The translations under genes were made by a program, and so were the position numbers. Source: Verrucomicrobiota bacterium (GTDB lineage: Bacteria; Verrucomicrobiota; Kiritimatiellia; CAIQIC01; JAGNIJ01). From it: a stretch of 64,000 nucleotides of DNA. The stretch lies in the NCBI GenBank assembly GCA_043803015.1, contig JAZDKK010000023.1, positions 20,946-84,945 on the forward strand. Direction: 5' to 3'. Shown one piece after another: positions 18,473 to 64,000 of this stretch; position 1 is the stretch's first letter, and every line of letters starts with the position of its first letter. The notes under the pieces were generated by a model, which ran no database searches, was not told the DNA's origin, and was given only the letters and a program-made list of their open reading frames with translations.

Positions 18473-18550
18473 AACAACTTCCCTGTCCCTCCCAACCTCC
18501 GAGGAAGACCAACCGCGGATTTCGCGGATTGCACGGATAGGTAATGCGGA

Positions 18551-18610: not shown

Positions 18611-18679
18611 TCTTTCGGCGAAGGCGCGAAGGAATAAGGGAAGGCGAACCGCGGACTTGTCCGCGGTGGCGGATTTCCT

Positions 18680-18727
18680 CGAAGCAGATGCTTCGCATCG
18701 CTTCGGGGCACGGCACGGATTTCACGG
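18680..18727. repeat. left boundary inverted repeat of the low-GC island
   Basis: CGAAGCAGATGCTTCGCATCGCTTCGGGGCACGGCACGGATTTCACGG matches the reverse complement of 24143-24189 at ~45 of 50 positions. The related segment 18525-18560 matches the reverse complement of 24110-24155. Confidence 0.5.
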
Positions 18728-18800
18728 GCGCCTGCGATCTGCCCACCTCGCACGCCTAATTTGCAACTCAATCACCGGCCCCGTTTTGGAGACTGCTATT

Positions 18801-19688: not shown

Positions 19689-19790
19689 ATGGTACTTCCT
19701 TTGTGTATCGTGTTGTCTTCCCAACAATGCGGCTGAGTTTCGTTTCTTCCGCCGCGGAAAAAACACAGACTCCAGCCGCTGGTCGGAGGC

Positions 19791-20300
19791 TCAATTCTCC
19801 CCGCCAACAAGCGACACACTGCGTCCGCGAACAACCAAGGCTTTAGATCCCTTGTTTCTTGCGGCTAGTTCCGCCGCGTCTTTGCAGGCGTTCGTTTTAT
19901 CATCAAGGGGTTCGGGCACATCAGGCGCGAAATATTCAAGCGAGTATGCCGTGAGTGCCGGCTTGTCGATCTCATCCGTTTTCACTTCGATAATCCACTC
20001 GCATTCGCTTCGAGATTTGTAGCCGCTCTGCTGTTTGAATGTGTCCGTGCCGTAGTACTTCTGGCCAGCTGAATCTGTGACTTCAAAGGCGGACTTGAGG
20101 GTGCCAAAAAATTGGACGCCGTATTGAGTTGTTTTGACAGTGATCAGATACACCCTCTTACCCGCTGCATCTTTCCCGAGGTTTCGAGAAACCGATCCGA
20201 TATTGGCATGGGCCTTCGACGCGGCGATTGCGTCGCGGCAACACATGGTACCGACCAGGCAAACCACCAGACACGTAACGATAGTCGTCTTTGTCTCCAT
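19791..20300 (-). CDS. hypothetical lipoprotein
   Basis: METKTTIVTCLVVCLVGTMCC.. is a signal peptide with lipobox. RBS AGGAAAGGGG. The gene is low-GC. The longer ORF-track version, 19791..20489, runs into repeat A. Confidence 0.5.
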   Translation of the reverse strand: METKTTIVTCLVVCLVGTMCCRDAIAASKAHANIGSVSRNLGKDAAGKRVYLITVKTTQYGVQFFGTLKSAFEVTDSAGQKYYGTDTFKQQSGYKSRSECEWIIEVKTDEIDKPALTAYSLEYFAPDVPEPLDDKTNACKDAAELAARNKGSKALVVRGRSVSLVGGEN

Positions 20301-20353
20301 TTCGATCCCCTTTCCTGCAACGTCTGCCTTCAGCATCCGTAGTCTGGGGTAGT

Positions 20354-20632
20354 CCGGGGTCGAACCATAGCTTTCTCTAGAGCACCAACCACTTATGACT
20401 CCCAGAACCCACTTTTCACCCCTTACAGCTTCTTTTTCAGCCCGAAAATCGCTGCTAAGGCTCCCGTTCCTTGCGCAACACCCTCCCACCCGCGCCCTTG
20501 GGAGCTCAAGACGTGGCCGAAAAGAGCCTGTAAGCCCCCGTCTTAGCCCCTCTTGCCGTCGTAGGTCGTTGCCTGCCTAGACCGACCTGCTGCGCCTCGC
20601 CGAAGCCCCGGGCGAAGGCGGGTGGTCCAACC
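20354..20632. repeat. MITE-like repeat copy A (TIR CCGGGGTCG.ACC)
   Basis: Over 20375-20590 it shares ~85% identity with 22150-22365 (TCTAGAGCACCAACC..GCTCAAGACGTGGCCGAAAAGAGCCTGTAAGCCCCCGT..). It sits immediately 5' of the gene starting at 20300. Confidence 0.6.
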
Positions 20633-20649
20633 TCGCCATCCTGTCTTCT

Positions 20650-21339
20650 TCATCCTTCAATCCACCATCTCTGAGGTCCTGGCAGGGGAAGTGAGCTCGC
20701 GATCTGGTTGACAGCTTCAGCTGCGGACCGCACCAATCCTTTCATCCAGTCAAAATGAAAACAGATCTGTTTGTAGTGCTCTGTGGATGGCGAGGACTCG
20801 GTCACGTTTACATAGCTGACATTTGCCTTCCTGTCGGTCATGGGTCTGGAAGTGGCGAACTTGCCGAGCGAGTAGTTGTGGACAAGGCCGCAACGCGCTT
20901 CACGGTAGAGAAGGTGCGCGTAGCTGAATTGCCGCAATTGTTCCTTGGAGAGTTGGGGGCATTCTATGAGAAGGTCGTCTTCCATGCCGTCAGCGTCGTC
21001 ACCTGTAATAATCAACGCGTGATGCGGTGGTAGGTACTTCTGCCGGATTGAATCTGCGGCCTGTCGTTTGATGGGGTCTGTGTCGCGTGCGAATTCCTGA
21101 ACTAGCATCGCCGTGCTTATGAACTGCGTTTGGAGGGTTGGTTTGCAGTAGGTGACAAGGAGTTCAACGAAGCGCTTGCGATCGATTCTCTCGCCCGGCC
21201 AGACGAGCGAGGCGATTCCACTCAACACGGCAAGAAGTAGGATTACGGCCTCAGGGTAGCCTGCGTCGCAGGCTCCGTCGGCGAGTCTCTCTGCGATGCC
21301 GATGCGGTGCAGGGCGAATTTGTTGATCCAGTCATTCAT
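20650..21339 (-). CDS. hypothetical protein with a possible HEPN-like Rx4H motif (RCGLVH)
   Basis: 229 aa: MNDWINKFALHRIGIAERL.. It has no recognisable family. The HEPN suggestion rests only on the Rx4HxY pattern and the island context. Confidence 0.45.
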   Translation of the reverse strand: MNDWINKFALHRIGIAERLADGACDAGYPEAVILLLAVLSGIASLVWPGERIDRKRFVELLVTYCKPTLQTQFISTAMLVQEFARDTDPIKRQAADSIRQKYLPPHHALIITGDDADGMEDDLLIECPQLSKEQLRQFSYAHLLYREARCGLVHNYSLGKFATSRPMTDRKANVSYVNVTESSPSTEHYKQICFHFDWMKGLVRSAAEAVNQIASSLPLPGPQRWWIEG

Positions 21340-21349
21340 GTTTCCGCCT

Positions 21350-21456
21350 CCGGGGTCCTCCGGGGTCGGACCACAGGTTCCTCTAGAGCACCAACCAGTT
21401 ACAGTTCCCAGAACCCCGCTTAGCGTCCAAGTGGGGTTCGCCTTCTACGACCCCGG
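21350..21456. repeat. MITE-like repeat copy B (short form, ~107 bp)
   Basis: It starts CCGGGGTCCTCCGGGGTCGGACCACAGGTTCCTCTAGAGCACCAACCAG and ends CGACCCCGG. It sits immediately 5' of the gene starting at 21339. Confidence 0.55.
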
Positions 21457-21506
21457 CAGGAAACGCAGACTTCAGACACAAGATCGAGCCTTGGTCTGGC
21501 TAACGC

Positions 21507-21710
21507 CTAGGCGTGGAAGAACTCGATCAGTTCTTCCCAGCTCTTCCTCACGCCGTTTCCTCTACGCGTCCGGCCAGCGCACCACTCGATTGTGGCCCTG
21601 CCGATTCGGAGGTCACCTAGGTGTTTGTTCTGGCCGTCGTACACATCCAGTTCAATGCCGTTGTTCCCAATCTCCATACTAACCTGGAACTCCTTCACGC
21701 TAACCTTCAT
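21507..21710 (-). CDS. hypothetical small protein (67 aa)
   Basis: MKVSVKEFQVSMEIGNNGIELDVYDGQNKHLGDLRIGRATIEW.. It may be co-transcribed with 21808..22080. The start position is within +/-1 nt by my reading. Confidence 0.35.
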   Translation of the reverse strand: MKVSVKEFQVSMEIGNNGIELDVYDGQNKHLGDLRIGRATIEWCAGRTRRGNGVRKSWEELIEFFHA

Positions 21711-21807
21711 GTTATCCTCCCTGCTTCGTCGCTTGAACGTTACGGGCGGGCCGGCCGCAAGACCCGTTCGATGGCAGCCTTCACTCGCCCCGTGGCCCGC
21801 ACGTCAA

Positions 21808-22080
21808 CTATCTCTTCTTGGGGCGACCGGGGCGATTATGCGGGACGAGCCGCTTGACTTGGCTGAAGCCTTGGTCAAGTTGTTCGAACGCCTGCCGGGC
21901 GCCATCCTTCCTCCCTTGAATGTACACGGCTTGCATGATCTGGGCGAGTTTGACGCCTTCGTACAAACTGGCATTCCTGACAATGTCCTCTACGGCTTGC
22001 ACCAAACGCCTCCCGGCGTACAGCGTTAGCTCAGTGGTTGCCAATGCGACTTTGACGGTCTTGAAACCGCGTTTGCCCAT
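21808..22080 (-). CDS. hypothetical small protein (90 aa), possibly an RHH/antitoxin-like DNA-binding protein
   Basis: MGKRGFKTVKVALATTELTLYAGRRLVQAVEDIV.. RBS GGAAAGGAGAG. The antitoxin idea comes only from its size and position upstream of a second small ORF. Confidence 0.4.
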   Translation of the reverse strand: MGKRGFKTVKVALATTELTLYAGRRLVQAVEDIVRNASLYEGVKLAQIMQAVYIQGRKDGARQAFEQLDQGFSQVKRLVPHNRPGRPKKR

Positions 22081-22104
22081 GATAGCTCTCCTTTCTTCTC
22101 GCGT

Positions 22105-22384
22105 CCGGGGTCGGACCACCCGCCTTCGCCAGAGGCTACGGCGGGCACGACAGGTTGCTCTAGAGCACCAACCAGTTACAACTCCCAGAACCCCGCTTTT
22201 CACCCCTTACAGCCTCTTTTTCGGCCCGAGAACTGGCCGCAAGACTCCCGTTCCTCAGGCAGCACCGCCGCTCACGCCCTTAGAAGCTCAAGACGTGGCC
22301 GAAAAGAGCCTGTAAGCCCCCGTTTTGGCCCTTTTGCCGTCGTAAGTCGTTGGCTCCCTAGACAGACCTGTGGTCCGACCCCGG
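22105..22384. repeat. MITE-like repeat copy C (full form, with terminal inverted repeats)
   Basis: The left end is CCGGGGTCGGACCACC.. and the right end is ..CCTGTGGTCCGACCCCGG. A nested ~30-bp insert, CCGCCTTCGCCAGAGGCTACGGCGGGCACG, lies in the left TIR. It sits immediately 5' of the gene starting at 22080. Its right TIR encodes the last 8 codons of the 22358..23092 gene. Confidence 0.6.
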
Positions 22385-23092
22385 CAAAACACCTTGTTTC
22401 TCTGGCATGGCTTTCAAGTACTCGTCCGACTGAATCACGAGATCGATCCAGTTGACTGTCATGTTCACGAGTGCCTTGAGATCCCTGAGATCCTTCTCTT
22501 CCCATTTTCTCGTGTAGTGCGTTTCATCATTCCCTAACCATGCGGCACGCTTCGCGCAGTGCTTGATGCGATCTTCGTCAATGAACTGCTCGATGCATGT
22601 GGCAAGAAATGCCTTGGCCACCGCCGCAGCCTTTGATGCATCGCTTCTGAACTTATAGTGGATGATGAAGTCCTTAATCAGGAACTCTAGCGACTTGCGA
22701 TATCCCGGACCGGCAATCTGGTCCAGGCCGTTTTCCTCGGCCACGAGCGACTGGTTGTATGTCGTGCAGAAGACAGGGGAGAGCTTGGCAACCGCGTCGG
22801 GGAACGTCACGGCGTTCGCGGCGCGGAGTATCGTTGTTTCCACGAGATTGCACATAGCGTTCTGGACGGAGGTGCTGCGGGTATTGTAGGCGGCGATGAA
22901 CATCTCCTTGCAATCGTCAGCGGGACATATGAAGGAGACGCGGATCTTGTGATCTCCTTCGCTCAGGTAGTGCCCGATAATGGGTTGTGGCTTCACGGAT
23001 GTCTGGCATGCAGGGCACGTGTCGGGAAACTTGTTGATGCTGATGATGTGCTGCTGTCCCGTTTCATCCACGGCTGTGATTTGGTGCGGCAT
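22358..23092 (-). CDS. zinc-finger plus DUF4145-type (HEPN-superfamily) protein, candidate abortive-infection/defence component
   Basis: The N-terminus has CPAC..CPADDC. The C-terminus has ..DRIKHCAKRAAWLGNDETHY.. which fits the DUF4145 R..GN...H signature. Confidence 0.55.
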   Translation of the reverse strand: MPHQITAVDETGQQHIISINKFPDTCPACQTSVKPQPIIGHYLSEGDHKIRVSFICPADDCKEMFIAAYNTRSTSVQNAMCNLVETTILRAANAVTFPDAVAKLSPVFCTTYNQSLVAEENGLDQIAGPGYRKSLEFLIKDFIIHYKFRSDASKAAAVAKAFLATCIEQFIDEDRIKHCAKRAAWLGNDETHYTRKWEEKDLRDLKALVNMTVNWIDLVIQSDEYLKAMPEKQGVLPGSDHRSV

Positions 23093-23152
23093 GTTCTGGT
23101 TCTCCTGGAGCTAACGTCAAGAATCACCGTGCCCTGAACCTGCGCAGCAGGT

Positions 23153-23419
23153 TCAGGGCACCGTGGATTCTCTGGTTCGGCCGTGTTTGGTCTCGAAGGA
23201 TCTGAATCTTGACTTCCCCTCCTTGCGCAAGGACGCCAATTCCTTCTCAAGCCACGCGATCTGTGCGTCGAGTTCCTCGTAAGTCACACACTCGGCGCCG
23301 AGTAAGGTGTGGCGACCTTCCGTGAATCGGCATTTCAGACGAATGTGGGCGCGGGGTCGGCCGGGGAGATCGCCTTTACGTGGGGTTTGAAACAACAAGC
23401 CGAAGTATAGCGTCCTCAT
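23153..23419 (-). CDS. hypothetical small protein (88 aa)
   Basis: MRTLYFGLLFQTPRKGDLPGRPRAHIRLK.. Its start overlaps the upstream membrane-protein stop (ATGA at 23416-23419). Confidence 0.35.
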   Translation of the reverse strand: MRTLYFGLLFQTPRKGDLPGRPRAHIRLKCRFTEGRHTLLGAECVTYEELDAQIAWLEKELASLRKEGKSRFRSFETKHGRTRESTVP

Positions 23420-23847
23420 TCGTTCCTCCTTCTGATGGCGCTTCGCACAACTTCTGCGAGAAGCAGCAACAATCCCACTGACAAGGTGATCCAGCCTCTC
23501 CCCCATTCGGCACCTTGGTCGGCAATCTTCGCAAATGATGCGACAAACCGGTCACTGGCATTTGCCAATCCGAGCACTCGGTGGGCGGCTGCGTGGTAGC
23601 TGAAGATGGCCCACGCAAAACCCCCGAAGGCAAGAAGACAAAGTGGTCCGGCGATGCGTTCTCGGCCGGTAAACCAGAAGTAGAACGAGAGAACGCCCAC
23701 GGCTGAGAGGAAGAGCGCGCAGAAGGGATCTAATGTCCAGAGGACTGTCCCACCAAAAAGGGCATGCTCTTCTACCCTAATCCGCGGTGCGAGCGCGAGG
23801 ATGACCGATCCGATGAGCCCGAGACCATGCGTTTGTTCTTCTGGCAT
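23416..23847 (-). CDS. hypothetical membrane protein (3-4 transmembrane helices)
   Basis: 143 aa with hydrophobic segments IGSVILALA, LWTLDPFCALFLSAVGVLSFYFWF, LCLLAFGGFAWAIF and ITLSVGLLLLLA. Confidence 0.5.
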   Translation of the reverse strand: MPEEQTHGLGLIGSVILALAPRIRVEEHALFGGTVLWTLDPFCALFLSAVGVLSFYFWFTGRERIAGPLCLLAFGGFAWAIFSYHAAAHRVLGLANASDRFVASFAKIADQGAEWGRGWITLSVGLLLLLAEVVRSAIRRRNE

Positions 23848-24142
23848 CTTTGTTCTCCTGCAGAACAGTTTGCATTACTCAGTTAGGTTCACGCTTCCCT
23901 ATCCCTGCCGAATCCGGTGCCAGGCCAACCGTTGCCTATCCTGGCTGAGGTTGTCTTCCCCTCCTGCCGCGATCCGGATGCAGTCCGCCGTAGCGGGGGC
24001 GAGTATAGCGGGAGGGAGGGAAGCGCGCAATGCGCGCTTCAGGTTCAGAGTTCAAGGTTCAACCCGCCTACGGCGGGCAAGCATCGAACTAGGAAGCAGG
24101 CGCGTAGAAAGGAGGATCGGAGGTCCACCCCATGTTACCTAT

Positions 24143-24189
24143 CCGTGTAATCCGCGCTGTGCCCTGAAGCGATGCGAAGCATCTGCTTC
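24143..24189. repeat. right boundary inverted repeat of the low-GC island
   Basis: It is the reverse complement of 18680-18727 (CGAAGCAGATGCTTCGCATCGCTTC core plus CGGATT.CACGG tail). Confidence 0.5.
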
Positions 24190-24215
24190 GGGGTAATCCG
24201 CGGTTAGGCTTTTCC

Positions 24216-24262
24216 GGTCTGTCCGTTAACCTTGCGATCTTTGCGATCTTTTGCGGCAATCC
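24216..24262. repeat. intergenic repeat family X copy
   Basis: GGTCTGTCCGTTAACCTTGCGATCTTTGCGATCTTTTGCGGCAATCC. Confidence 0.45.
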
Positions 24263-24340
24263 GGGGCCGTCCGTTAGCGCAGGCAGGCTCTTCTTGTGGG
24301 TGATCTGAGTGTTCTGTGGGCTCTCTTCACTTGTCCTTTC

Positions 24341-24375
24341 GAGCACGAGGCCGAGAACGAGGCCGAGAACGAGCT
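24341..24375. repeat. hexamer-periodic repeat (reverse-complement orientation of the CTCGTT family)
   Basis: GAGCACGAGGCCGAGAACGAGGCCGAGAACGAGCT. Confidence 0.45.
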
Positions 24376-24434
24376 GAGCAATCTGCGTGTTCTGTGGGCC
24401 CCTCTTCGGCTGTCCGCGGCGGCCGGTTCGCGGT

Positions 24435-54070: not shown

Positions 54071-54225
54071 CCCGGCAGCGCGACGGCAAGAGTATCCGCC
54101 CCCTGATTCCGCCCCGAGATTCCTCGTCGCTCCGAGCAGCTCGTCGCTCCTCGGAATGACAAACATGCCGGTTGAGGGGTTGTGTCATCCCGAGTCGCGC
54201 GCCGCGCGTGACGAGGGATCTCACG

Positions 54226-54350
54226 ATTCACCCACGGGCACGTCCGCGCTGGGAGCAGCACCCGAAATAGGCACGGCAGGGATGCCGGGCCTCCCTGCCG
54301 TGACCGTCACTCCCACGTCTCGGAGGGTCATGGGAGGTTGTGTGATCGCG
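54226..54350 (-). repeat. conserved structured 3' element downstream of PEP-CTERM gene 1
   Basis: It shares ~80% identity with 55116-55225. Its hairpins are GGCAGGGA.TCCCTGCC and CTCCCATG..CGTGGGAG. It lies directly after the stop at 54351-54353. Confidence 0.5.
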
Positions 54351-54941
54351 CTATTTCTTCCTCGACCTGCGGATCGCGACCGCCGCCAGCCCCGCGCCGA
54401 CCAGCATGGCCAGGGTCGTCGGCTCCGGGATGGTCGAGACGATGTCCATTTCCGCCAGCTCCATCTGCTGGTTGCCGAGGCCCGTGCTGATGGTGACCTT
54501 GGGCTTGACCAGCTTGGTGTTGGCATCCCAGGAGAACCCTTGAAGCGCATGATTCGTGTTGCCCACGAAGGTTCCGTCGGGATGAATCGTCAGCGCGGAC
54601 AGGTAGTTCGAGCTGGCGTCGAACTGATCGAAGCCGACCTGGTAGCTCATCGAGCCGGAGATGTTGCTGACCGCGAATGAGAGGGTGGCCGCGCTCCACG
54701 TGTTGCTGTCGAAGGCCAGGTACTCGACGGGCGAGTACGCGATCGCCGCGCTGTTCGACAGCACGGAGAACATCCCGTTCGAGCCGTCCGAGAACCAGAA
54801 CGGCCCGGCATCGGGCTGCGACTGCCAGACGTAGGTCCAGCCGCTGACGCTTGAAAGGTCGTCGTGGTACAAGATGACGTCCGCCGAGGCCGCCCGGCCC
54901 CACATCAAGGCGCTCCCTACAACCAGCCATATCTTTCTCAT
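54351..54941 (-). CDS. PEP-CTERM sorting domain-containing protein
   Basis: Signal peptide MRKIWLVVGSALMWGRAASA. The C-terminus IPEPTTLAMLVGAGLAAVAIRRSRKK is the PEP motif plus a transmembrane helix plus a basic tail. Confidence 0.8.
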   Translation of the reverse strand: MRKIWLVVGSALMWGRAASADVILYHDDLSSVSGWTYVWQSQPDAGPFWFSDGSNGMFSVLSNSAAIAYSPVEYLAFDSNTWSAATLSFAVSNISGSMSYQVGFDQFDASSNYLSALTIHPDGTFVGNTNHALQGFSWDANTKLVKPKVTISTGLGNQQMELAEMDIVSTIPEPTTLAMLVGAGLAAVAIRRSRKK

Positions 54942-55037
54942 CGCGTGCTTGCTCCTCTGATGGTGTTTCCTAGTTCCCGGGAACCACTCCCGTAAGAGTT
55001 ACGGCGTTCTCACTCCCGCCGCGCCCGGGCCAGAGTG

Positions 55038-55063
55038 TGATAAACTTTATCAACCGTGTCAAC
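55038..55063. promoter_or_regulatory. palindromic motif TGATAAACTTTATCAA next to TTGACA, upstream of PEP-CTERM gene 1
   Basis: GATAAA-C-TTTATC is a perfect palindrome. On the minus strand it reads GTTGACACGGTTGATAAAGTTTATCAC, ~100 nt upstream of the start at 54941. Confidence 0.35.
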
Positions 55064-55115
55064 CACAAAAAGGGCATCCGCTCCTCGCCGAGCGAATGAG
55101 GCGGCAGAATCTCCC

Positions 55116-55225
55116 GATTCACCCAGGGCCGCAGGACCCCAAAAGAGGCATGGCAGGGATGTCGGAGCATCCCTGCCATGACCGTCACTCCCATCTCTCG
55201 GAGGTAATGGGAGGTTGTGTGATTG
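55116..55225 (-). repeat. conserved structured 3' element downstream of PEP-CTERM gene 2
   Basis: Homologous to 54226-54350. Its stem is CTCCCAT..ATGGGAG, whereas copy 1 has CTCCCATG..CGTGGGAG (a U-G pair versus a U-A pair). Confidence 0.5.
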
Positions 55226-55233
55226 TCGTTGTT

Positions 55234-55920
55234 CTATTTGCTTCGACGACGGCGCAGAACCGTCAACCCGGCGACCGCGAGTCCCAGCATACCCAGCGTT
55301 GCCGGCTCAGGCACGGCCTGCGCGAAGGGGTTATCGTCCCTGAACTGGACACGGCGCACCATGAACCCTTCCGTGCTGAGCTCTGAGTTGCCTTCGCCCA
55401 CCAGGATGAATTGGGTGTTGGTGTAGGCACCGCCGACCCCTGGCTGCCAGATCGAGAGATCATAAACGTAGGCTCCGGGGTTGTAGATCACCGTGCCATT
55501 TCCCTGGTCGCCACCAGAAGTCCCGAAGCAGTTCGTCTGCATCTGGATCTCCATGTAGCCTGCGCTCGACTCCCCCGACACGCCGATCTTGACGTCGCCC
55601 CTCACGTCCCACAGATCAATGTACAGATATTTGTACGTCTGCAGGTTCGCCGCGTCCACGCCCGTGCCGTACCAGATGCTTCCGTAACCCGGCCCGTTCG
55701 TGATTGTCGCATTCCCGGCATACTCGCCGTTCGTGTAGTACGGCACAAAGGCTGTTGGCTCCAACAGCTTGTCTCGGCCCCACTCATCGATATTCCCATC
55801 CGCCGGGTTCACGTCGTTCGTCCACGTCTCGTACCCCCAGATGATGGTGGCCGGAGCCGTCACTGCTCCGCACAGCACCAGCCCTGCCACCATACCCATC
55901 AACAACAACTTCTTCATCAC
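55234..55920 (-). CDS. PEP-CTERM sorting domain-containing protein
   Basis: The start is GTG-ATG MMKKLLLMGMVAGLVLCGAVTA, with RBS GGAGGA. The C-terminus is VPEPATLGMLGLAVAGLTVLRRRRSK. Confidence 0.8.
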   Translation of the reverse strand: MMKKLLLMGMVAGLVLCGAVTAPATIIWGYETWTNDVNPADGNIDEWGRDKLLEPTAFVPYYTNGEYAGNATITNGPGYGSIWYGTGVDAANLQTYKYLYIDLWDVRGDVKIGVSGESSAGYMEIQMQTNCFGTSGGDQGNGTVIYNPGAYVYDLSIWQPGVGGAYTNTQFILVGEGNSELSTEGFMVRRVQFRDDNPFAQAVPEPATLGMLGLAVAGLTVLRRRRSK

Positions 55921-55988
55921 TCGTCCTCCGTCTGAGTACGGATTCCCAACAGCGGGAATCTCAACTCTGCCGTAAACCTTACAGCAGA

Positions 55989-56007
55989 TTGATAAACGAT
56001 GTCAATA
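55989..56007. promoter_or_regulatory. TTGATAAACGATGTCAA motif upstream of PEP-CTERM gene 2
   Basis: On the minus strand it reads TATTGACATCGTTTATCAATC, ~65 nt upstream of the start. It shares the TTGACA..GTT.AT.AA pattern with 55038-55063. Confidence 0.3.
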
Positions 56008-56111
56008 CAGTTTTCACATGTTTTGCCGCCTGCCCCTGCCCTTCCCCGTCTAACCCATGCTAGTCAGTAATATCGGGCGTATTCCTCGTATTTCGCCAAG
56101 CTATTTCCTTG

Positions 56112-56140
56112 TTGACATATTGACAGTATTTATCAATAAT
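56112..56140 (+). promoter_or_regulatory. near-consensus sigma70-type promoter for the giant downstream gene
   Basis: TTGACA (56112-56117), a 17-nt spacer, then AATAAT (56135-56140). It lies ~80 nt upstream of the ATG at 56222 in an AT-rich divergent region. Confidence 0.45.
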
Positions 56141-56221
56141 CGCTACCGCTGCGGCCGGGCGAGAGGGAAACCGTGAGGTTTACGCCCGCTCGGGCAGACC
56201 ACAGGCAGGTGTAGGCAGTTC

Positions 56222-59200
56222 ATGAGGCACGGAAGGCGGCTGGAACGGGCGGGAGGAGCGGCGCTTGGAGGCGCCGGCACGGTCGCGGGACTGTTGTCGG
56301 TCTTGTTTCTCTGCCGTGCGGCAGGCGCGGGCGGGCCGGCGGCGTCCTGGTCGTGGTCCTTCAACCGCCCTCTGCAGGCCACGGAGGTGATGTGGACAAA
56401 CGTGACGTGGTCGCTGAACGTTGACGGTAACACGGCCCTTTCTTCGACCTCCGGTGCGGCAGGTTATGTCATGTTCACGAACATCGCCGTGAACCTCGAC
56501 ACCCACCCTATCCTGGAACTCGATGCCCCTGGGGCCCAGGGCCACTGGACGCTGGAGGCCGGCCTGCACGGCTCCTCCCTCTCCAACGTGCACGCGAGCG
56601 TGAAGCCGGGCGCCGTGTCGGTGAACCTGAGCGAGCGGTTCGGCTGGACCGGGGCGCAGAGCCTTGACCTCCGCGTGTCATGCTCGAACCGGGTCGAACT
56701 GCGGGAGTTGAGCCTTTCCGTGAAACCCGGCTGGGTGCTCGTGGACGGCTTCGACACGCATCACTGGGAGGGCGAGTTCCAAAGCCTCTTCTTCGGCATC
56801 AATCCGCACGTGACTAACAACGGCGGCTGGATCCATCCCTGTACCGGGACCTACTCCACGGCGCATCCCGTGGAGGGAGAAACTGCCCTGCGCGTTTCCG
56901 CCCCCATCGTCCCGGGCGACGCGGCCAATTTCGCCTACCTCAAGGCGGTGCTGCCGGAGCCGGAGGACTGGTCGAATCACCGGTTCCTGACCTTCGACGG
57001 CTACGTCGAGCAGGCTCCGCTAATCATGCCCTCCGGCGGCTTGGTCCTGAGGAACGATCGAGGCGAGGAGAACCACGTGACGCTGATCCTCGGCTGGCAG
57101 ATGTTCGAGTGGGAGAACCGCCAGACCACGTTCCCGCTCCAAGGCAACATGATGAAGGGTGTCCAGAACAACTACACGAACTGGGAAATACGGCCGATAC
57201 CCGGGAGCCTACTGACCAACGTGACCGAGGTCACCGTGGGATTCGAGTACTACTCCGACCCCGAGCTCCAAACCAACTTCGTGCACCTGGACAACATGCG
57301 CCTGGATTCGGTCCGCATGTGGGACGCGTTCGAGGGGCCTGAGTACGGGTGGCACGGCACGAACCCCGCCGTCCGAACGGGGATCAGCGGCAACCGGACG
57401 TTGAGCGGCAGCGCGGGGGCGCTCTGCATCAGGTGGACCAACTCCTCCGGCCGGATATCGGCGGACACGCGCGGGGCGGCCCGGGAGGACAACTGGAGCT
57501 CCTACGCCTACGTGAAAGCCCACGCGTGGGCCGATCAGACCAACACGCGCGTCCGTCTCGTCGTCAACGGAACGCACACGACCACCGTCGCCGCCGTCGG
57601 CACGACGGGGACGTGGAACGCCATCGCCTGGAACAGGCCCGCCGGCGTGACCTCCGTGTCCAACCTGGCGTTCGAAATCGTGGACCCGCCGGCCGAGGGG
57701 CGGGTCTACATCGACCAGCTCATGGTGGGCGCCTACCCGAGCCGGATCGAGTCCGTCCAGGCCCTGGCCCTCCGGGACCGCAACCGGCTGACGTGGTCGC
57801 TCTCCGACACCGCCGGCGTGAAGAGGGTTCGCGTGGTCTGCAATACGAACGCCCTGCCGACCGGCCCCTCGGACGGCACGGTCGTGCTGGACCAGCCGCC
57901 GGGGAGCAGCGGAGATTTCTCCTTCGACCACGAGGGCGTTTCGGCAGGCGTCGTATACCACTACGCCGTCTTCACGCAGTACGACGACGACAGCTTCTCG
58001 CCGGTGACGGCGGACGCCGCGGCCGAAGTGTCCCGGGATTTCCTGGCGTTGGACGGCGGCGGCTACGAGGCGGCGTTCAGCAAGGTCAACGGTGCCCTGT
58101 TGTATCTCTACGACCGCGGCACGGGCCGCACCCTCTCCTACGGCAACGAGGCGCTGAGCCTGTGGCGCGTGGTCTTCGTCCACGAGTCCATCCCGGCGAT
58201 CGAATCCGGCTGGTTCAGCCCGGAGGAGGACACGCTGAAGTTCTCCTACACGCAGAGCCCCCTGACGCTCCGCTACAGCTACCTCAACGGCACGCAGTCG
58301 CTGGACGTCGCGGTGACGGTGGACACGTGGTCGACCAACCGGCTGGTCCTGCGGGTCGGCGTCAGCAACCACACGGCCGAGGCGATCCGGCGCGTCGGCG
58401 CGCCCCGGCAGCTCCTCTTCGCGATCACCAACATCAACGGCGTCGTATTCCCCGTGCAGGAAGGCGTGAGGCTGACGAGGGAGTACTTCGAGAAGGGCCA
58501 CTACATGTTCGAGCCGCGGCCGTGGCTGTTCGCGGACTTCATCGGCCTGGACTCAAGCGACGGCCTGTTGAGCTTCTACGCCATCCAGGACAGCACGTAC
58601 GAGGCCGAGCTGTTTCCGAGGCACGACCCGGCGCGCCCGATGTTCCAGCCCTGCGTGCTGGGCGTCGGCGCGGCCATGAACACCCGGGGCATGGCGATCA
58701 TGGACTACGACGCCGTCACCTACATCCCGCCCGGCGGCCACTGGACCAGCCCTGCCCTGGTCCTGGAGACCGGCGGCGGGTCGACCCGGGACGCCGTGGC
58801 CAGCTACAAGCAGCTCAACAGCTTCAACGACACGAATCTCTTCCCGACGCTGCAGCAGAAGCTCGACGCGTTCGGATGGTTCGACCGGATCGCCCGGGCC
58901 CCCGTCCTGACCATCGAGTGCGAGCTCTCCGTGGACTGGCAGAAGGCGCCGCAGGGCCGGCTCTGGCAGACGATCGAGAACGAGTGGGTTAACGTGCTGC
59001 CTCGGGACAGCATCCTGCATTTCACCCACTGGCAGGAGGGAACGCTCGAGGACCGGCACCCCGACAGCCAGCCGATCGTGGAGTCGAAGTTCGGGTCCAC
59101 CAACGACCTCATCCACATGCTGGCCGCGCTCCACCAGACCAACGACTGGCTGGTGATGCCCTTCTGCGATTGGCTGGTCTGGAACAAGCCCGAGGACCTG

Positions 59201-62200
59201 GTCTACCAGGACGGGAAGCTGGTCCCCCGCCCGGAATCCTGCACCAAGGTGCGCAGCCCCGACACGCCGCTCCTCGACTACCGCGGCTACATGGTCAAGC
59301 CCTGGCACACCAACGTCTGGCAGGCCAACACCAACCTCATGGGGTTCTACACGACGAACCAGCCGGTCGACCTGATGTTCATGGACATGACCTGCGAGCG
59401 GAGCTGGCGCTACACGCGCGTCGACCAGGACGCGAACGGGGTCGACGACCGGATCGTCGTGGGCTACACGCAGGGCGTCATCGACGAGAACCACGAGCTC
59501 AAGCGGCTCAAGCCCATCTTCACCGAGGGCCTGTTCGACCGGATGATGGGCGAGGTGTCAGGCTACTGCGGCTCCCTGCGGCAGAAACGACTCCTGGACT
59601 GGCTGGCCCACATGGGGAACGAGTTCGAGGACTGGGTGGTTTACCCGCTGGCCGCCGACGTTGCCCACCTGCACGTGGGCTTCTACCAGCACAACCTCAA
59701 CACGCCGGTGTTCCCGGACAGGAAGCTGCTGCTCACGCATTACACCTTGATGGGCTACGGCTACCTCGTGGATGTGGCCCACTGGTACAAAGAGAACAAC
59801 GAGCGCGGCGAGAACTGGATGTATATCTGCGACGCCTTCCAGAAGGCCGTGGCGGCCAAGTACTTCGGCAAGCCGCTCAGCGCGTACGTGCCGGCCGCCG
59901 GCGGCGACCCGCGCGTGATCCAGATGTCCTACGGAAGCGGCCCCGACGAGATCACGATCCTGGCCAACTTCCACAGCAACGAGACGTACAGCACCGGCGG
60001 TTACGTCCTATCCCCGGAAGGGTTCCTGGCCACCACGCCGGATAACCGCGTGATGGCCGACATCTTCACCAATCTCTTCCACGGCGCCGCGCTCACGCCC
60101 GGCGAGCACTTCATCGCGATCGACCGCACGTCCGCGACCGAGATCACCGTCCGGCACCCGCACGGGCCCGACACGCCGCTGCGCCTGCCGCGGCCGGCCG
60201 CCTGGACCAACAAGGTGTTCGCTCGCTGCGTGCTGGAGGACGGCTCGGAACTGCTCGCACCGGATTGGGTGTCGACGTCCGGCTCCGACCTGGTGCTGGA
60301 CTGCCGCCAGCGCACGCCCGGCGGGAGCAAGATCTCGAAGTTCATCCTGTTCGATGCACCGCTCAGCGCCAACCTGCCGCTCTACTTCCTCTCGGAGCCC
60401 CTTTTCGAGCTCGAGAACGAGACGCAGACGTGGGTCCGCGTGCGCGCCAGTAAGCCGGTCACGGCGGTCGTCCAGTACGGCGTGAACGGCGGTTCGAGCT
60501 GGGCCGTGACAAACCATGTCTTCTCCTATTCGCAAATGAGCTTGGTCGACCTTCCAATCCTTGGAACCGACTACTGGTTCCGGGTCACGATCACGGACGC
60601 GCAGGCGAACTCGGTCTCGAGCGGCACGGCGACCTACACCGCGCTTCGGAGCTTCTGGGGAGATGATTTCCTGACACCGAAGATCCACGTGAGCTTCGAC
60701 CTGGGTCCGTACGTCGAGAAGGATATCGTGTACAACGAGGGCGATGCCGCCAACGACGTGTTCGGCGACCGGCCGGGTGATGTCCACGGCTTCTGCGAAG
60801 ACGGCTGGTCCAACGGCGCCACGCGGGCAGCCGGCCTGCCGGCCAACCGGATCGTGCGGAGCACGGCGCAGGGCCTCGAGTACCGCCTCCTCCCCTACAG
60901 CACCGCCAACGTCATCGAGCTGTGCACATGGAGCAATGCCCCGGCCGAATCCTATGTGCTCGATGCGCCGGTCACGGCGCGCTACGCCCGCATCGGCATC
61001 CTGGCGGCCTCGGTGGGAGGCGATGCGACCTTCACGATCCTGTTGCGCTACGCCGACGGCACCGTCGCGACCAGCACGTGGGAGGCGGCCGACTGGCGTC
61101 AGCCGGCGGCGACCAACGTCGCGTTCGTCTTCACCAACCTGAATCACGTGGTGGCCGCGGACGGCACGATCCAGGGCGCCGCTGAACACCGGCTGTGCGA
61201 GTACGTGCTCGACAGCAACCGGGGCCTCGACAGCACGAGAGATCTGGCCGGTGTCACGATCGCCAATCGTCCGCTCTACGGTCCCGCCGCGACCAATGCC
61301 TACGCCGCGATCTTCGCTGTCAGCGGCTACGAGATCACCAGCGGCTGGCGCGACGACTACAACCACGACGGCCCGTGGCCGTGGAATGCGCGGCTCTACA
61401 CCAGCAACGGCTGGGGCGTCGTGACGGCGGACGCCGCGCTGTGGCAAAGCACGAACTACGGCAAGGTGCTTTCCGGCATCCTGCAGGCCGACCTGGTCCA
61501 GTTCCCGATCCTGGAAGTCTTTGTGCCGAAGACCGAGATGTGGGGCCGGAGCTGGTGGGTCCTCTCCCTGCAGGACCAGGACCCGCCCTACTCCAGGGTC
61601 CAGCTCTTCGAGGACCGCCAGCTCGGCACGGGCCGGCTGATCCTGAACATCCCGGAGATGACCGGCTGGTCCGGCCACAAGAAGTTCGCCGTTGAATTCG
61701 GGATCTACAACACCGAGATGGCGGAGCAGCACCTCTTCATCGACTACGTGCATCTCCGGCGGGACACGAGCGTGGGATGGGGGGACGGGTTTGCGCCGCC
61801 GCTCGATTCCTGGATCACGGAGGGCAATTCGCCCGGCACCCATGCGTGGCTGATCGACAACCACAACGGCACCGCCACGCTGGCCCAGGACGGCCATGCG
61901 CAGGGCTGGGGTGCCGCGTATTCCGAGCGTGTGGTCATGGACCTCGGGGACTACCCATGGCTCAACGTGCGCGTGGCCGGCATCACGAATCCGGCCGAGG
62001 GCGCCCATTTCAAAGTCAACGTCAACGACCAGCTCGGCCCGGCCTACCAGCAGGTCATCCCGGCCCGGTACGCGCCGTTTGAGGATTCGGGCCGCGTCGA
62101 CAAGTTCGGGACGAACGCGCTCGACCAGTTCCGCGTGGCGATGGTCATCGGGGGCTCCAACCAGCTGGCCGTGGTCGACTACGTGGAGTTCGGCAAGCGC

Positions 62201-64000
62201 GGCCCGACGGCAGGACGGCTGGTGTGGGACTCGGAGACGGCGTCCCTCAAGGCCGGGCTGGGCGAGGCGATCTGGCTGGCACTGACCGCGACGGATGCGG
62301 ACGGGAATCCCATCCACTACAGCCATCGCGGCCTGCCCCCGGCGGCCACCTACGACGGCATTCTCAGGTGGACCGCGCCCACGGCCGCCGGCACATACCG
62401 CTTCGACGTATTGGCAAGCAGCGACGGCCGGATCGTGACGAGCCGCGTTTCCGTCACGGTCGTCGACAGCACCATCCAGCATGAAGCCCCGGCCTGGGAA
62501 GCCCCCTGGAAGGCTGTGGCCACGGGCGCGGTCACCCTGGCCGGAACGTACGTGCCCGAAACCACCAACCTTCTGGTCGAAGTGAGCGTCAACGGCGACC
62601 CGTACAGCACCGCCGGCGTGACACAATCGCTCGACAGCTTCACCTGGTCGGGCACGGTCTCGAGCAGCCCGGTGACGCTCGACGCGCGTGTGCGCGACAC
62701 CGACACGTCGAAGCTCAGCTCGGCCGACCGGTGCACGCTCTACTCCACGATCCTCGGTCCCGGGTTCCGCCACGCACCCGCGGTCATGATGAGGGATGCG
62801 ACGTCGGCCTGGGTCCTCGTGAAGTCGCCGACGCAGGTCGCGGCGGAAGTCCGGTACGGGATCGGCGCCATGTACCTCGCCGCAACCAGCGCGGCCCTCT
62901 CGCTGACCCATGCCCTGCCGCTCCCGGACCTGTCCCCGGCCGATCCGTATTCCTACCAGGTCATCATCACGGACGGGGCCGGGGACGCCAGGATCAGCGG
63001 CGTGCAGGCCCTCCCCGCCGCCGGCGCGCACTGGGTTGAGGAGTTCGACGGCGAACCGGCGGGCTGGGGGGAATACCTCGGCGCCTCCATCACGGCCAGC
63101 AACGGCCAGGGCATCATGGTTTTCGAAGCGACGACCTCCACGTGGGCGAAGGTTCTCTCCCCCGCGCTCGACGTGGACGTGGACCAGTTCCCGGTTCTCG
63201 AGATATCGATCGCCGAGCCCTCCCTGTGGCCGGGCGCCTACGAGATCGGCCTGCAGGAAATGGAGGGTGACTGGACCTATGTCTCCCTCGCCAACAACCA
63301 CCTGCCCGGTACGATCATCGCCAATATCCCGCGCCTATCCGGCTGGGGCGGCCGGAAGAAGTTCGCCGTAGAGATCCGGATCTACAAGGACCTTCTGGAC
63401 ACCAAGCGGCTTTTCATCAACTACGTCGAGCTGCGCAGCGCCGCGAACGTGGCCTGGTCGGAGGAGTTCAACCCGCCGCGCACCACCTGGGGCTACGCGT
63501 ACAACGCGCTCCTCACGAACATCGGGGGCGGCACGGCGACGCTCCGGCAGTCCGGCGGCAGCGAGGGCTGGGGCTGGCTGTTCTCCGAGTTGATCGTCGC
63601 CGACAGCCGGGAATACCCGTGGATGAGGGCCGGCGTGACCGCCATGGACATGGGGGCCAACTTCAAGGGCGTCATCAAGGATGAATGGCGCACCAACTAT
63701 GTGACGGCCATTGACCGATGGGACACCTCGTTTACCGCCTCGGGCCGTTTCGGCATCCCCCGGGCCGGCGTGAGCAGGCTCGACGTCCTCCGCGCGGGGC
63801 TCGCGATCGCCGGCGCGGGCGCTGATGCCGTGGTGGATTCGGTCGAACTCGTAAAACTGGCGCCGGGCGCGACGCTGGCCTGGGACCCCGTCTCCGCCTC
63901 GTACAAGTCCGGCCCGAGCGCTGCGCTTTCCCTCCCGCTTACGGCGACGGAATATGGCGGCAGCCCCATCCAATACTCGGCACAGCACCTGCCGCAAGGC
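56222..64000 (+). CDS. giant secreted multi-domain protein (>2590 aa, continues past the window end) with repeated CBM-like beta-sandwich modules, FN3-like and cadherin-like Ig domains and a possible glycoside-hydrolase-like core
   Basis: Frame 2 stays open from the ATG at 56222 to the window end. No ORF-track entry in this frame starts after 56222, which fits there being no stop. It has a signal-like N-terminus MRHGRRLERAGG..LLSVLFLC. The module ..DQFP(I/V)LE(I/V)..W..GW(S/G)G(H/R)KKFAVE..IY..LFI(D/N)YV.LR recurs at ~61.5 kb and ~63.2 kb. A second module type lies at ~61.9 kb and ~63.6 kb. All antisense ORFs here have mirror-image high-GC composition. Confidence 0.7.
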   Translation, partial: MRHGRRLERAGGAALGGAGTVAGLLSVLFLCRAAGAGGPAASWSWSFNRPLQATEVMWTNVTWSLNVDGNTALSSTSGAAGYVMFTNIAVNLDTHPILELDAPGAQGHWTLEAGLHGSSLSNVHASVKPGAVSVNLSERFGWTGAQSLDLRVSCSNRVELRELSLSVKPGWVLVDGFDTHHWEGEFQSLFFGINPHVTNNGGWIHPCTGTYSTAHPVEGETALRVSAPIVPGDAANFAYLKAVLPEPEDWSNHRFLTFDGYVEQAPLIMPSGGLVLRNDRGEENHVTLILGWQMFEWENRQTTFPLQGNMMKGVQNNYTNWEIRPIPGSLLTNVTEVTVGFEYYSDPELQTNFVHLDNMRLDSVRMWDAFEGPEYGWHGTNPAVRTGISGNRTLSGSAGALCIRWTNSSGRISADTRGAAREDNWSSYAYVKAHAWADQTNTRVRLVVNGTHTTTVAAVGTTGTWNAIAWNRPAGVTSVSNLAFEIVDPPAEGRVYIDQLMVGAYPSRIESVQALALRDRNRLTWSLSDTAGVKRVRVVCNTNALPTGPSDGTVVLDQPPGSSGDFSFDHEGVSAGVVYHYAVFTQYDDDSFSPVTADAAAEVSRDFLALDGGGYEAAFSKVNGALLYLYDRGTGRTLSYGNEALSLWRVVFVHESIPAIESGWFSPEEDTLKFSYTQSPLTLRYSYLNGTQSLDVAVTVDTWSTNRLVLRVGVSNHTAEAIRRVGAPRQLLFAITNINGVVFPVQEGVRLTREYFEKGHYMFEPRPWLFADFIGLDSSDGLLSFYAIQDSTYEAELFPRHDPARPMFQPCVLGVGAAMNTRGMAIMDYDAVTYIPPGGHWTSPALVLETGGGSTRDAVASYKQLNSFNDTNLFPTLQQKLDAFGWFDRIARAPVLTIECELSVDWQKAPQGRLWQTIENEWVNVLPRDSILHFTHWQEGTLEDRHPDSQPIVESKFGSTNDLIHMLAALHQTNDWLVMPFCDWLVWNKPEDLVYQDGKLVPRPESCTKVRSPDTPLLDYRGYMVKPWHTNVWQANTNLMGFYTTNQPVDLMFMDMTCERSWRYTRVDQDANGVDDRIVVGYTQGVIDENHELKRLKPIFTEGLFDRMMGEVSGYCGSLRQKRLLDWLAHMGNEFEDWVVYPLAADVAHLHVGFYQHNLNTPVFPDRKLLLTHYTLMGYGYLVDVAHWYKENNERGENWMYICDAFQKAVAAKYFGKPLSAYVPAAGGDPRVIQMSYGSGPDEITILANFHSNETYSTGGYVLSPEGFLATTPDNRVMADIFTNLFHGAALTPGEHFIAIDRTSATEITVRHPHGPDTPLRLPRPAAWTNKVFARCVLEDGSELLAPDWVSTSGSDLVLDCRQRTPGGSKISKFILFDAPLSANLPLYFLSEPLFELENETQTWVRVRASKPVTAVVQYGVNGGSSWAVTNHVFSYSQMSLVDLPILGTDYWFRVTITDAQANSVSSGTATYTALRSFWGDDFLTPKIHVSFDLGPYVEKDIVYNEGDAANDVFGDRPGDVHGFCEDGWSNGATRAAGLPANRIVRSTAQGLEYRLLPYSTANVIELCTWSNAPAESYVLDAPVTARYARIGILAASVGGDATFTILLRYADGTVATSTWEAADWRQPAATNVAFVFTNLNHVVAADGTIQGAAEHRLCEYVLDSNRGLDSTRDLAGVTIANRPLYGPAATNAYAAIFAVSGYEITSGWRDDYNHDGPWPWNARLYTSNGWGVVTADAALWQSTNYGKVLSGILQADLVQFPILEVFVPKTEMWGRSWWVLSLQDQDPPYSRVQLFEDRQLGTGRLILNIPEMTGWSGHKKFAVEFGIYNTEMAEQHLFIDYVHLRRDTSVGWGDGFAPPLDSWITEGNSPGTHAWLIDNHNGTATLAQDGHAQGWGAAYSERVVMDLGDYPWLNVRVAGITNPAEGAHFKVNVNDQLGPAYQQVIPARYAPFEDSGRVDKFGTNALDQFRVAMVIGGSNQLAVVDYVEFGKRGPTAGRLVWDSETASLKAGLGEAIWLALTATDADGNPIHYSHRGLPPAATYDGILRWTAPTAAGTYRFDVLASSDGRIVTSRVSVTVVDSTIQHEAPAWEAPWKAVATGAVTLAGTYVPETTNLLVEVSVNGDPYSTAGVTQSLDSFTWSGTVSSSPVTLDARVRDTDTSKLSSADRCTLYSTILGPGFRHAPAVMMRDATSAWVLVKSPTQVAAEVRYGIGAMYLAATSAALSLTHALPLPDLSPADPYSYQVIITDGAGDARISGVQALPAAGAHWVEEFDGEPAGWGEYLGASITASNGQGIMVFEATTSTWAKVLSPALDVDVDQFPVLEISIAEPSLWPGAYEIGLQEMEGDWTYVSLANNHLPGTIIANIPRLSGWGGRKKFAVEIRIYKDLLDTKRLFINYVELRSAANVAWSEEFNPPRTTWGYAYNALLTNIGGGTATLRQSGGSEGWGWLFSELIVADSREYPWMRAGVTAMDMGANFKGVIKDEWRTNYVTAIDRWDTSFTASGRFGIPRAGVSRLDVLRAGLAIAGAGADAVVDSVELVKLAPGATLAWDPVSASYKSGPSAALSLPLTATEYGGSPIQYSAQHLPQG

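Follow-up and report, generated by a model that had tools for sequence, protein, structure and literature searches.

Stem-loops at the 3' ends of genes for highly expressed secreted or surface proteins are familiar from the 'positive retroregulator' of the Bacillus thuringiensis cry genes and from the REP sequences in enterobacterial 3' UTRs; such stem-loops can be moved between genes and guard the upstream mRNA from 3' exonucleases, and REPs occur as hundreds of dispersed copies. A different use of the 3' UTR is seen in the enterobacterial small RNAs CpxQ, DapZ and SroC, which are derived from 3' UTRs, have their terminator in common with the parent mRNA, and combine an upstream stem-loop or seed with a terminator hairpin. 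To our knowledge nothing is known about termination signals in the Verrucomicrobiota lineage considered here, and a literature search found no paper tying PEP-CTERM genes to a structured RNA or UTR element.

The window (by which is meant the whole 64,000-nucleotide stretch of DNA that was analysed) carries two genes with PEP-CTERM-like C-termini, and only these two; both lie on the minus strand, as do all the features of this island for which coordinates are given below. Gene 1 (54351-54941; NCBI MFH0953087.1) is an open reading frame for 196 aa that matches PF07589/TIGR02595 and whose product is 100% identical to P0001, and gene 2 (55234-55920), also matching PF07589/TIGR02595, encodes 228 aa when read from its GTG (the corresponding NCBI entry, MFH0953088.1, starts at the next ATG instead and has 227 aa). 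The only common part of the two proteins found by BLASTP is the 26-aa PEP-CTERM tail, the proteins being otherwise unrelated, and the 53% identity of the coding sequences is that of the shuffled baseline (about 52%). A separate promoter-like motif, of the operator-like form TTGACA-N3-TTTATCA, is found for each of the two genes: TTGACACGGTTGATAAAGTTTATCAC upstream of gene 1 (55037-55062), which is conserved in the related locus L003 (at 6028-6052 there), and TTGACATCGTTTATCA upstream of gene 2 (55990-56005), which matches the gene 1 motif and is part of an inverted repeat. Judging by its absence from relatives whose dUTPase is 81-94% identical, the island holding these genes appears to be a recent insertion; in those relatives feoA-feoB come next after the dUTPase gene, and both the island and the element described below are missing (the one contig in this range that stops directly after dUTPase, L025, is uninformative as to the island).

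Directly following each of the two genes is an element of about 85 nt, consisting of a first hairpin (P2; 8 bp, with a loop of 10-11 nt), a 7-nt linker, a second, GC-rich hairpin (P3; 13-15 bp) and a UUU tail. The core of copy 1 (54264-54346; covariance model score 108.6 bits) begins with the leader AUCACACAAC (54337-54346), after which comes P2 (54310-54336; -10.5 kcal/mol), in which CUCCCAUG (54329-54336) pairs with CGUGGGAG (54310-54317) around the 11-nt loop ACCCUCCGAGA; beyond the linker, P3 (54272-54302; -23.4 kcal/mol) is a terminator-like inverted repeat with 14 stem positions, including one G.A mismatch, and a CCG loop, and is followed by CCUAUUUC (54264-54271) with the U tail. Copy 2 (core 55140-55223; 101.5 bits) is built in the same way, with the leader AUCACACAAC at 55214-55223, P2 at 55188-55213 (CUCCCAUU pairing with GAUGGGAG around the 10-nt loop ACCUCCGAGA; -9.7 kcal/mol), and, after the linker, a terminator-like P3 at 55149-55180 (a 13-bp stem with a 6-nt loop; -24.1 kcal/mol) that leads into CCUCUUUUG (55140-55148) with the U tail. 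In the window copies P3 begins 49-54 nt past the stop codon, on the sense strand of the gene.

That similar segments lie after the stop codons of both PEP-CTERM genes, as the original prediction had it, is borne out by a repeat search and alignment, which place the direct repeat copies at 54218-54346 and 55109-55223; over the core, from stop codon to U tract, the two copies are 85.9% identical (79 matches, 10 mismatches and 3 gaps), and the window has exactly two occurrences of the 17-mer ATCACACAACCTCCCAT, as against 0.06 expected. Neither the leader AUCACACAAC nor the linker UGACGGU differs between them. The further claim, that the element is conserved and structured and lies in the 3' UTR on the sense strand, is supported as well. 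Both hairpins exist, and each window copy folds on its own (z = -3.5 for copy 1 and -6.3 for copy 2). Its details needed correcting, however, in that the hairpin given as 8 bp, GGCAGGGA/TCCCTGCC, is actually a stem of 13-14 bp (CACGGCAGGGAGGC / GCAUCCCUGCCGUG), while the compensatory change for which the prediction was titled, U-G versus U-A at pair 7 of P2, is a one-sided wobble change rather than a double one. The plus-strand open reading frames that share a VMGGCVI peptide are present and are, as had been proposed, spurious; they are non-coding artefacts, since the loops of P2 and P3 both contain 1-nt indels, by which every reading frame is shifted between the copies, and L003 has no ATG at that place.

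Two further copies were found, both in related uncultured genomes and each directly 3' of an intact PEP-CTERM gene: an ortholog in locus L016 and a paralog in L003, where the PEP-CTERM proteins are 48-49% identical to those of the window. Across the window and the related loci the element thus follows four of four intact PEP-CTERM genes (from three related genomes, two of the genes being orthologs of one another), and all of them sit in the one island next to dUTPase. In every copy the stop codon is followed after 5-10 nt by the module; each copy folded singly takes up the same two-hairpin shape (z = -3.5 to -6.3), RNAalifold recovers P2 and P3 unguided, and the stability of P3 ranges from -23.4 to -31.0 kcal/mol over the four. 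A UUU located 3-5 nt beyond the P3 stem is invariant in all four copies, the tract itself being only 3-4 U long and present on the gene-sense strand only. A four-way junction, formed in the minimum free energy folds of both window copies by a closing stem P1 together with a hairpin P4, was rejected as part of the conserved unit, the P1/P4 part being missing in L016 and L003.

Searches for other copies gave little beyond this. Neither the covariance model nor blastn found any elsewhere in the roughly 290 kb of window and related loci, a motif search allowing up to 3 mismatches, the covariance model and blastn-short found no more in the window, and loci L004-L015 and L017-L025 carry none. With the pattern CAACCTCCCAN{9,18}GGGAGTGACGG, GTDB genomes and JGI metagenomes yielded one match each (Prevotella, L001, and soil, L002), both of them chance matches without further similarity; this pattern is too strict, in that it would miss L016 and L003, and the collections scanned evidently lack the source contig of the window. 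A refined pattern fitting all four copies matched nothing in viral contigs, and blastn against plasmids and phages likewise returned nothing. Rfam 15 gives no matches at gathering thresholds over the whole window, the best sub-threshold scores being those of Ref66 (28.8 bits against a threshold of 92), traJ_5 (27.9 against 50) and FinP (27.2 against 45). The copies after PEP-CTERM genes outside the window are those of L016 and L003, which lie in the island next to dUTPase as well, and none came from the strict-pattern scans of genomes and metagenomes; an extension to exosortase substrates in general would go beyond the sample, which comprises four genes and three genomes that are closely related.

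This distribution bears on the possibility that the repeat acts at the level of DNA, as a mobile palindrome of the REP or MITE kind, or as an attC-like junction between exchangeable PEP-CTERM cassettes. Near-identical imperfect palindromes of about 100 nt after unrelated open reading frames, in a variable island, would fit such a picture, as would the short terminal complementarity CGAUCAC / GUGAAUCG of the window copies; however, this pairing is missing in L016 and L003, the window's 64 kb contain just two copies, both of them after PEP-CTERM genes, and there are none in related loci that lack such genes. Inspection of the sequence revealed no GTTRRRY core site after either copy and no target-site duplication or duplicated flank, no integrase or transposase domain was found among the 33 genes scanned of the approximately 36 predicted in the window, the orientation of the element relative to its gene is constant, and the genes have a promoter-like motif apiece, unlike integron cassettes. 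We regard a DNA-level role as very improbable.

A second possibility is that most of the similarity arose when a downstream segment of about 150 nt was recently duplicated or gene-converted within this island, the hairpins being generic and having no specific link to PEP-CTERM biology. Beyond the putative terminator, copy 1 has a further segment (54200-54263) made up of P4, here a variable GC hairpin, and block E (GGGUGAAUCGUGAGAU), and copy 2 has a homologous one (P4 and block E; 55086-55139), which are missing in the L016 ortholog and in L003. From the U tract through block E the two window copies align locally with a score of 34, against a mean of 17.4 for shuffled sequences (1 of 500 shuffles reaches 34). 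This shared stretch of about 60 nt has no counterpart in L016, so that selection does not account for all of the similarity between the window copies, part of which reflects a recent duplication or conversion. (Downstream of copy 1, ATGACA...TTTGTCAT was considered as the remnant of a promoter and is not supported, the similarity beyond block E being reached by 122 of 500 shuffles; between element copy 2 and the gene 1 promoter there is also a second terminator-like hairpin, at 55075-55098, of 9 bp and -13.3 kcal/mol, followed by CCCUUUUUGU.) Other observations point the same way: the identity between the window paralogs (86-89%) is about that between copy 1 and its L016 ortholog (89-91%), the linker has U in both window copies but C in L016 and L003, which suggests concerted evolution inside the window genome, and the island has itself been inserted recently.

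Against this, the element is older than the window genome, being present in L003 beside proteins of only 48-49% identity, and similarity begins at the stop codon in every copy, whereas a tract converted at random would have no such fixed 5' edge. In the comparison with L003, identity is 88.6% for P3 and linker (44 nt) and 88% for the promoter motif (25 nt), as against 59.5% for the intergenic part from the U tract to the downstream start (which contains the promoter motif) and 62-65% for the coding sequences, so that the element appears as an island of conservation within an otherwise diverged intergenic region; L003 has also kept P3 intact, and longer still than in the window. Duplication as the main explanation is judged unlikely. 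It should be added that the identity of the element between copy 1 and L016 (89%) is no higher than that of dUTPase third codon positions (90.6%), so purifying selection on its primary sequence is not demonstrated.

The pairing has been kept. Over the four copies it holds in 96.6% of cells, compared with 39-51% when the partners are slid by 1-3 columns, and indels are confined to loops. Double-sided changes occur at three pairs, namely pairs 6 and 8 of P2 and pair 3 of P3: at P2 pair 6, L003 has a compensatory change from A-U to G-C, and the other two distinguish the window copies themselves (P2 pair 8, G-C versus U-G; P3 pair 3, C-G versus U-A). All three substitutions in P2 between copy 1 and L016 keep pairing, and the internal G-U wobbles (P2 pair 7 in copy 1 and P3 pair 11 in L016) become A-C mismatches if the opposite strand is read. 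The covariation set consists of just these four sequences, and the observed values are reached by 20-21 of 500 shuffles. Recurrence in two other genomes, together with these few covarying pairs, thus runs counter to the outcome named in advance as refuting the element, namely no further copies and no covariation.

The explanation that we consider best, and judge to be probable, is that in one Verrucomicrobiota lineage the transcripts of PEP-CTERM genes end in this element, a module made up of a terminator, P3, and an accessory hairpin, P2. P3 with its UUU tail would act as a Rho-independent terminator; P2, lying 7 nt upstream of it, would be an auxiliary stem-loop of the 3' UTR, its most likely function being to aid termination or to shield the 3' end of the mRNA. 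The module as a whole would insulate tandem, separately promoted PEP-CTERM units from one another, and would have been duplicated or converted among these units and its foldability then kept by selection, which would also account for the presence of a common module after unrelated PEP-CTERM genes. The anatomy, position and strand of the element, its recurrence, its kept pairing and the end of conservation at the U tract are shown, and the end of transcription at the UUU and the contribution of P2 are inferred. Copy 1 and its L016 ortholog align almost perfectly from the coding sequence up to and including CCUxUUU, beyond which the alignment breaks down, so that similarity stops exactly at the UUU. 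P3 is, moreover, comparable to the other two long hairpins that lie just past gene ends in the window, at 16110-16141 (-22.5 kcal/mol) and 23161-23129 (-29.5 kcal/mol), so that a long stem with a weak U tail looks like the terminator style of this genome. On the other side of the argument, the U tract is short, copy 1 fails a simple terminator consensus scan that copy 2 passes, and terminator-like sites in this genome are not enriched over shuffles, so that intrinsic termination is not established for the organism; furthermore, a plain terminator leaves the identical leader and linker of the window copies unexplained. Among the options of cis-regulator, terminator or small RNA left open by the original prediction, it is nonetheless the terminator that is favoured, by the stability of P3, the invariant UUU and the ending of ortholog similarity at that point.

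In a more specialised reading the element would be a dedicated riboregulator of exosortase substrates: either a trans-acting small RNA of about 75 nt, made from the 3' UTR and comprising P2 and the terminator (and acting for example through the anti-Shine-Dalgarno-like CCUCC of its loop), or a site bound by an RNA-binding protein, through which the expression of PEP-CTERM proteins would be coupled to their sorting. The architecture is indeed that of many small RNAs, in which a stem-loop at the 5' end is joined by a short single-stranded linker to a terminator hairpin; the P2 loop, ACC(C)UCCGAGA, and the leader are unchanged among copy 1, copy 2 and L016 (the L016 linker having one change) although the adjoining coding sequences of the window copies are unrelated; and one may add the consistent association with PEP-CTERM genes and the weak, sub-threshold likeness to the two-hairpin FinP and traJ RNAs. 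However, the L003 loop is CUACACGCUGAA, which lacks CCUCC, and its leader differs at 4 of 10 positions, so that the three genomes have no conserved seed in common and the anti-Shine-Dalgarno loop had to be dropped as a candidate for one; no extended complementarity was found in the window or loci, no Rfam family reaches threshold, and the single-strand identity of the window copies is equally explained by the recent duplication discussed above. A dedicated regulator is unlikely, and its fullest form, a PEP-CTERM-specific riboregulator in Verrucomicrobiota (a small RNA of about 75 nt, or protein-bound) that coordinates the synthesis of exosortase substrates and has the TTGACA-N3-TTTATCA operator as the transcriptional half of the same regulon, we think slightly more so.

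If the module is a terminator only, an uncultured, high-GC lineage of Verrucomicrobiota would still have yielded a clean, portable terminator and 3' end module, which would portray the PEP-CTERM genes there as separately promoted and terminated units whose flanking control sequences are held in common and whose coding parts are swapped or diverging. Were the riboregulator real, exosortase/PEP-CTERM substrates would have their first element of control at the RNA level, and there would be a handle on the regulation of these poorly understood surface proteins. As matters stand, the most likely role of the module is that of a terminator of transcription, specific to the lineage, which also stabilises 3' ends; a special regulator is a less likely reading.

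Set against the known systems, the element resembles integron attC sites and the Vibrio cholerae repeats in its near-identical palindromes after unrelated open reading frames in a variable array, but it has no R'' (RYYYAAC) or R' (GTTRRRY) cores, the scanned window genes include no integrase domain, its terminal pairing is not conserved, and its genes carry promoter motifs of their own. With FinP and the traJ 5' UTR (RF00107 and RF00243) it shares two stem-loops, a short spacer and a second, terminator-type hairpin with GCAGGGA...UCCCUGC; the scores (27.2 and 27.9 bits against gathering thresholds of 45 and 50) are, however, obtained for copy 1 only, and there is no plasmid transfer context. 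It differs from the 3'UTR-derived small RNAs in being without a cross-genome seed, a detected target, or an identified processing site or internal promoter. To the cry retroregulator and the REPs it is similar in its stem-loop structure at the 3' end of a gene, where by analogy it may have a putative stabilising effect, though it has no sequence relationship with them and is seen only after PEP-CTERM genes. Finally, it differs from Rho-independent terminators in having only 3-4 U, an attached P2, a conserved leader and linker, and reuse after unrelated genes, but is like them in its GC-rich hairpin soon after the stop codon and in the ending of conservation at the U tract; its short stretch of U, on the sense strand only, would answer to their U-rich tract.

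A repeat search and an alignment of the two window copies place a common segment directly 3′ of the stop codons of both PEP-CTERM genes, which lie on the minus strand at 54351–54941 (196 aa; followed by copy 1) and 55234–55920 (228 aa; followed by copy 2) and each encode a PEP-CTERM sorting domain. From stop codon to U tract the copies are 85.9% identical, and the 17-mer ATCACACAACCTCCCAT occurs exactly twice in the window against 0.06 expected, so that the shared segment described in the original prediction is confirmed. The two proteins have only a 26-residue sorting tail in common, the identity between their coding sequences (53%) is equal to that of shuffled controls, and there are no other PEP-CTERM C-termini in the window (G+C 64.9%; proteins MFH0953086-88, from a metagenome-assembled genome that NCBI labels Verrucomicrobiota bacterium).

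Read in gene sense (minus strand), the element comprises a single-stranded leader, AUCACACAAC; hairpin P2, of 8 bp (CUCCCAUG/CGUGGGAG in copy 1, CUCCCAUU/GAUGGGAG in copy 2), with a loop of 10–11 nt, ACC(C)UCCGAGA, in both window copies; a linker of 7 nt, UGACGGU; hairpin P3; and a tail (CCUAUUUC in copy 1, CCUCUUUUG in copy 2). Both hairpins proposed earlier exist; P3, put at 8 bp, in fact has 13–14 stem positions (one of the 14 in copy 1 being a G.A mismatch). The element is non-coding, since every frame is shifted by single-base indels in the P2 and P3 loops, and one related genome lacks the start of the plus-strand 'MGGCVI' frame; the open reading frames sharing ..VMGGCVI.. are, as had been supposed, spurious.

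Among 5.8 billion proteins the 196-aa protein has just two homologs (48–49% identity), encoded as a tandem pair on a single Logan contig, L003. The PEP-CTERM tail of the first L003 gene is intact, and behind this gene comes the element, with P2 as CUCCCG/CGGGAG (pair 6 changed from A-U to G-C, and a different loop), linker CGACGGC, a 15-bp version of P3 and tail UGCUUUAA. The second paralog (6143–6784, plus strand) has IPEP and then an atypical extended tail, reading into the antisense of the 3′ end of a convergent dUTPase gene, and is without the element; it looks as if a deletion took the stop codon together with any 3′ element. A similarly tight gap, of 32 nt, is seen on JGI contig P0010. 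The dUTPase neighbour was used as an anchor for finding orthologous loci. In a 98%-identical relative, L016, an ortholog of the 196-aa gene (94% nucleotide identity) has the element behind it. Relatives with an 81–94% identical dUTPase have feoA-feoB directly after it, with neither PEP-CTERM genes nor the element (a further contig of the same range, L025, stops just behind dUTPase and so tells nothing either way). The PEP-CTERM genes therefore make up a small and variable island of recent insertion. This lies between dUTPase and feoA-feoB (window 54071–64000, compared with L004–L015 and L017–L024), and in L003 its content differs, comprising a 308-aa protein, a GH99 enzyme and the two PEP-CTERM paralogs.

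Over some 290 kb (window plus related loci) the element follows all four intact PEP-CTERM genes and occurs nowhere else; motif, covariance-model and blastn searches found no third copy in the window, and none was found in viral contigs, plasmids or phages. A two-block pattern gave one match each in GTDB species genomes and JGI metagenomes, both by chance; these scans rule out near-identical copies only, because the pattern is too strict for diverged relatives such as L016 and L003. The window itself was returned by neither scan, so that its source contig is evidently absent from both collections.

Folded alone, each window copy adopts the leader/P2/linker/P3 shape (z = −3.5 and −6.3), and P3 of copy 2 is flagged as terminator-like by a simple scan. 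Given the four copies, RNAalifold recovers P2 and P3 unaided, and 96.6% of cells are paired in this structure as against 39–51% when partners are slid by 1–3 columns. Three pairs show double-sided changes, those between the window copies being P2 pair 8 (G-C vs U-G) and P3 pair 3 (C-G vs U-A); the change at P2 pair 7 (U-G vs U-A), originally called compensatory, is a one-sided wobble change. All three P2 substitutions between copy 1 and L016 keep pairing, and indels among the copies are confined to loops. The covariation is suggestive rather than conclusive, because there are four sequences and 20–21 of 500 shuffles equal or exceed what was observed. Internal G-U wobbles and a UUU present only in the sense strand point to gene sense as the functional strand. 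A multibranch fold with a closing stem, available to both window copies, was dropped because it is not conserved.

Copy 1 and L016 align almost perfectly from the coding sequence as far as CCUxUUU, after which the alignment collapses completely, as expected if the transcript ends there. As a caution, element identity between the two (89%) is not above that of dUTPase third positions (90.6%). Two segments stand out when the window is compared with L003: P3 with the linker (88.6% identity over 44 nt) and a promoter motif (88% over 25 nt); the figure is 59.5% from the U tract to the downstream start codon (promoter motif included) and 62–65% for coding sequence. The window copies stay similar for about 60 nt past the U tract, a stretch that takes in block E (GGGUGAAUCG.GAGAU) and is missing from L016 and L003, and they have in common a linker variant found in neither; part of their similarity thus reflects recent duplication or gene conversion in the window genome, not selection. 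That the element is largely a fortuitous product of recent duplication is nonetheless improbable, given the older L003 copy with its compensatory change and a similarity edge coinciding with the stop codon. A repeat acting at the DNA level, or a cassette junction, is less probable still, the defining features of either having been looked for and not found.

A promoter- or operator-like motif, TTGACA-N3-TTTATCA(AT), one variant of which (TGATAAAGTTTATCA) is palindromic, is confined to the PEP-CTERM island (6 matches vs 0.11 expected). In the window it precedes both PEP-CTERM genes and a giant plus-strand ORF (55037–55062 and 55990–56005, minus; 56120–56135, plus), and its conservation extends to L003, where it stands upstream of the two PEP-CTERM genes (5127–5144 and 6028–6052); this suggests a single regulator common to these units. 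This ORF (56222–64000, >2,592 codons) runs off the window end, its C-terminus lying beyond, and the part inside has no Pfam match. Elsewhere, a lower-GC island at ~18500–24400 (50–58% vs 65% overall), whose ORFs have no Pfam match except a weak one to a trypsin-like peptidase (18801–19766, minus), was probably horizontally acquired.

P3, at −23 to −31 kcal/mol, resembles two other long hairpins in the window, at 16110–16141 (plus; −22.5 kcal/mol) and 23129–23161 (minus; −29.5 kcal/mol), both perfect, with stems of 14–15 bp, right after a gene end and with a weak T-rich tail. These suggest that terminators of this genome generally have long stems with poor U tracts. Two points call for caution over the terminator reading: the element's own U tract is short, and terminator-like sites are not enriched overall in the genome. 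A second terminator-like hairpin (55075–55098, minus; 9 bp, then CCCUUUUUGU) lies between copy 2 and the next gene's promoter, and with P3 of copy 2 would make a tandem-terminator arrangement. On balance we favour reading the element as a two-hairpin 3′ end module, in which P3 with UUU would act as an intrinsic terminator, P2 as an accessory stem-loop that may aid termination or protect the 3′ end, and the two together would serve to insulate PEP-CTERM expression units that stand in tandem and have a promoter each. A dedicated riboregulator or 3′ UTR-derived sRNA is unlikely, as no seed is conserved in L003 and no targets were detected in the window or the related loci.

At gathering thresholds no Rfam family matches the element, and under relaxed settings the only matches are similar-looking hairpins that stay below threshold (Ref66, traJ 5′ UTR, FinP). 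This 3′ element is real and structured, is restricted to one lineage, and has its place among terminator and 3′ UTR stem-loops.
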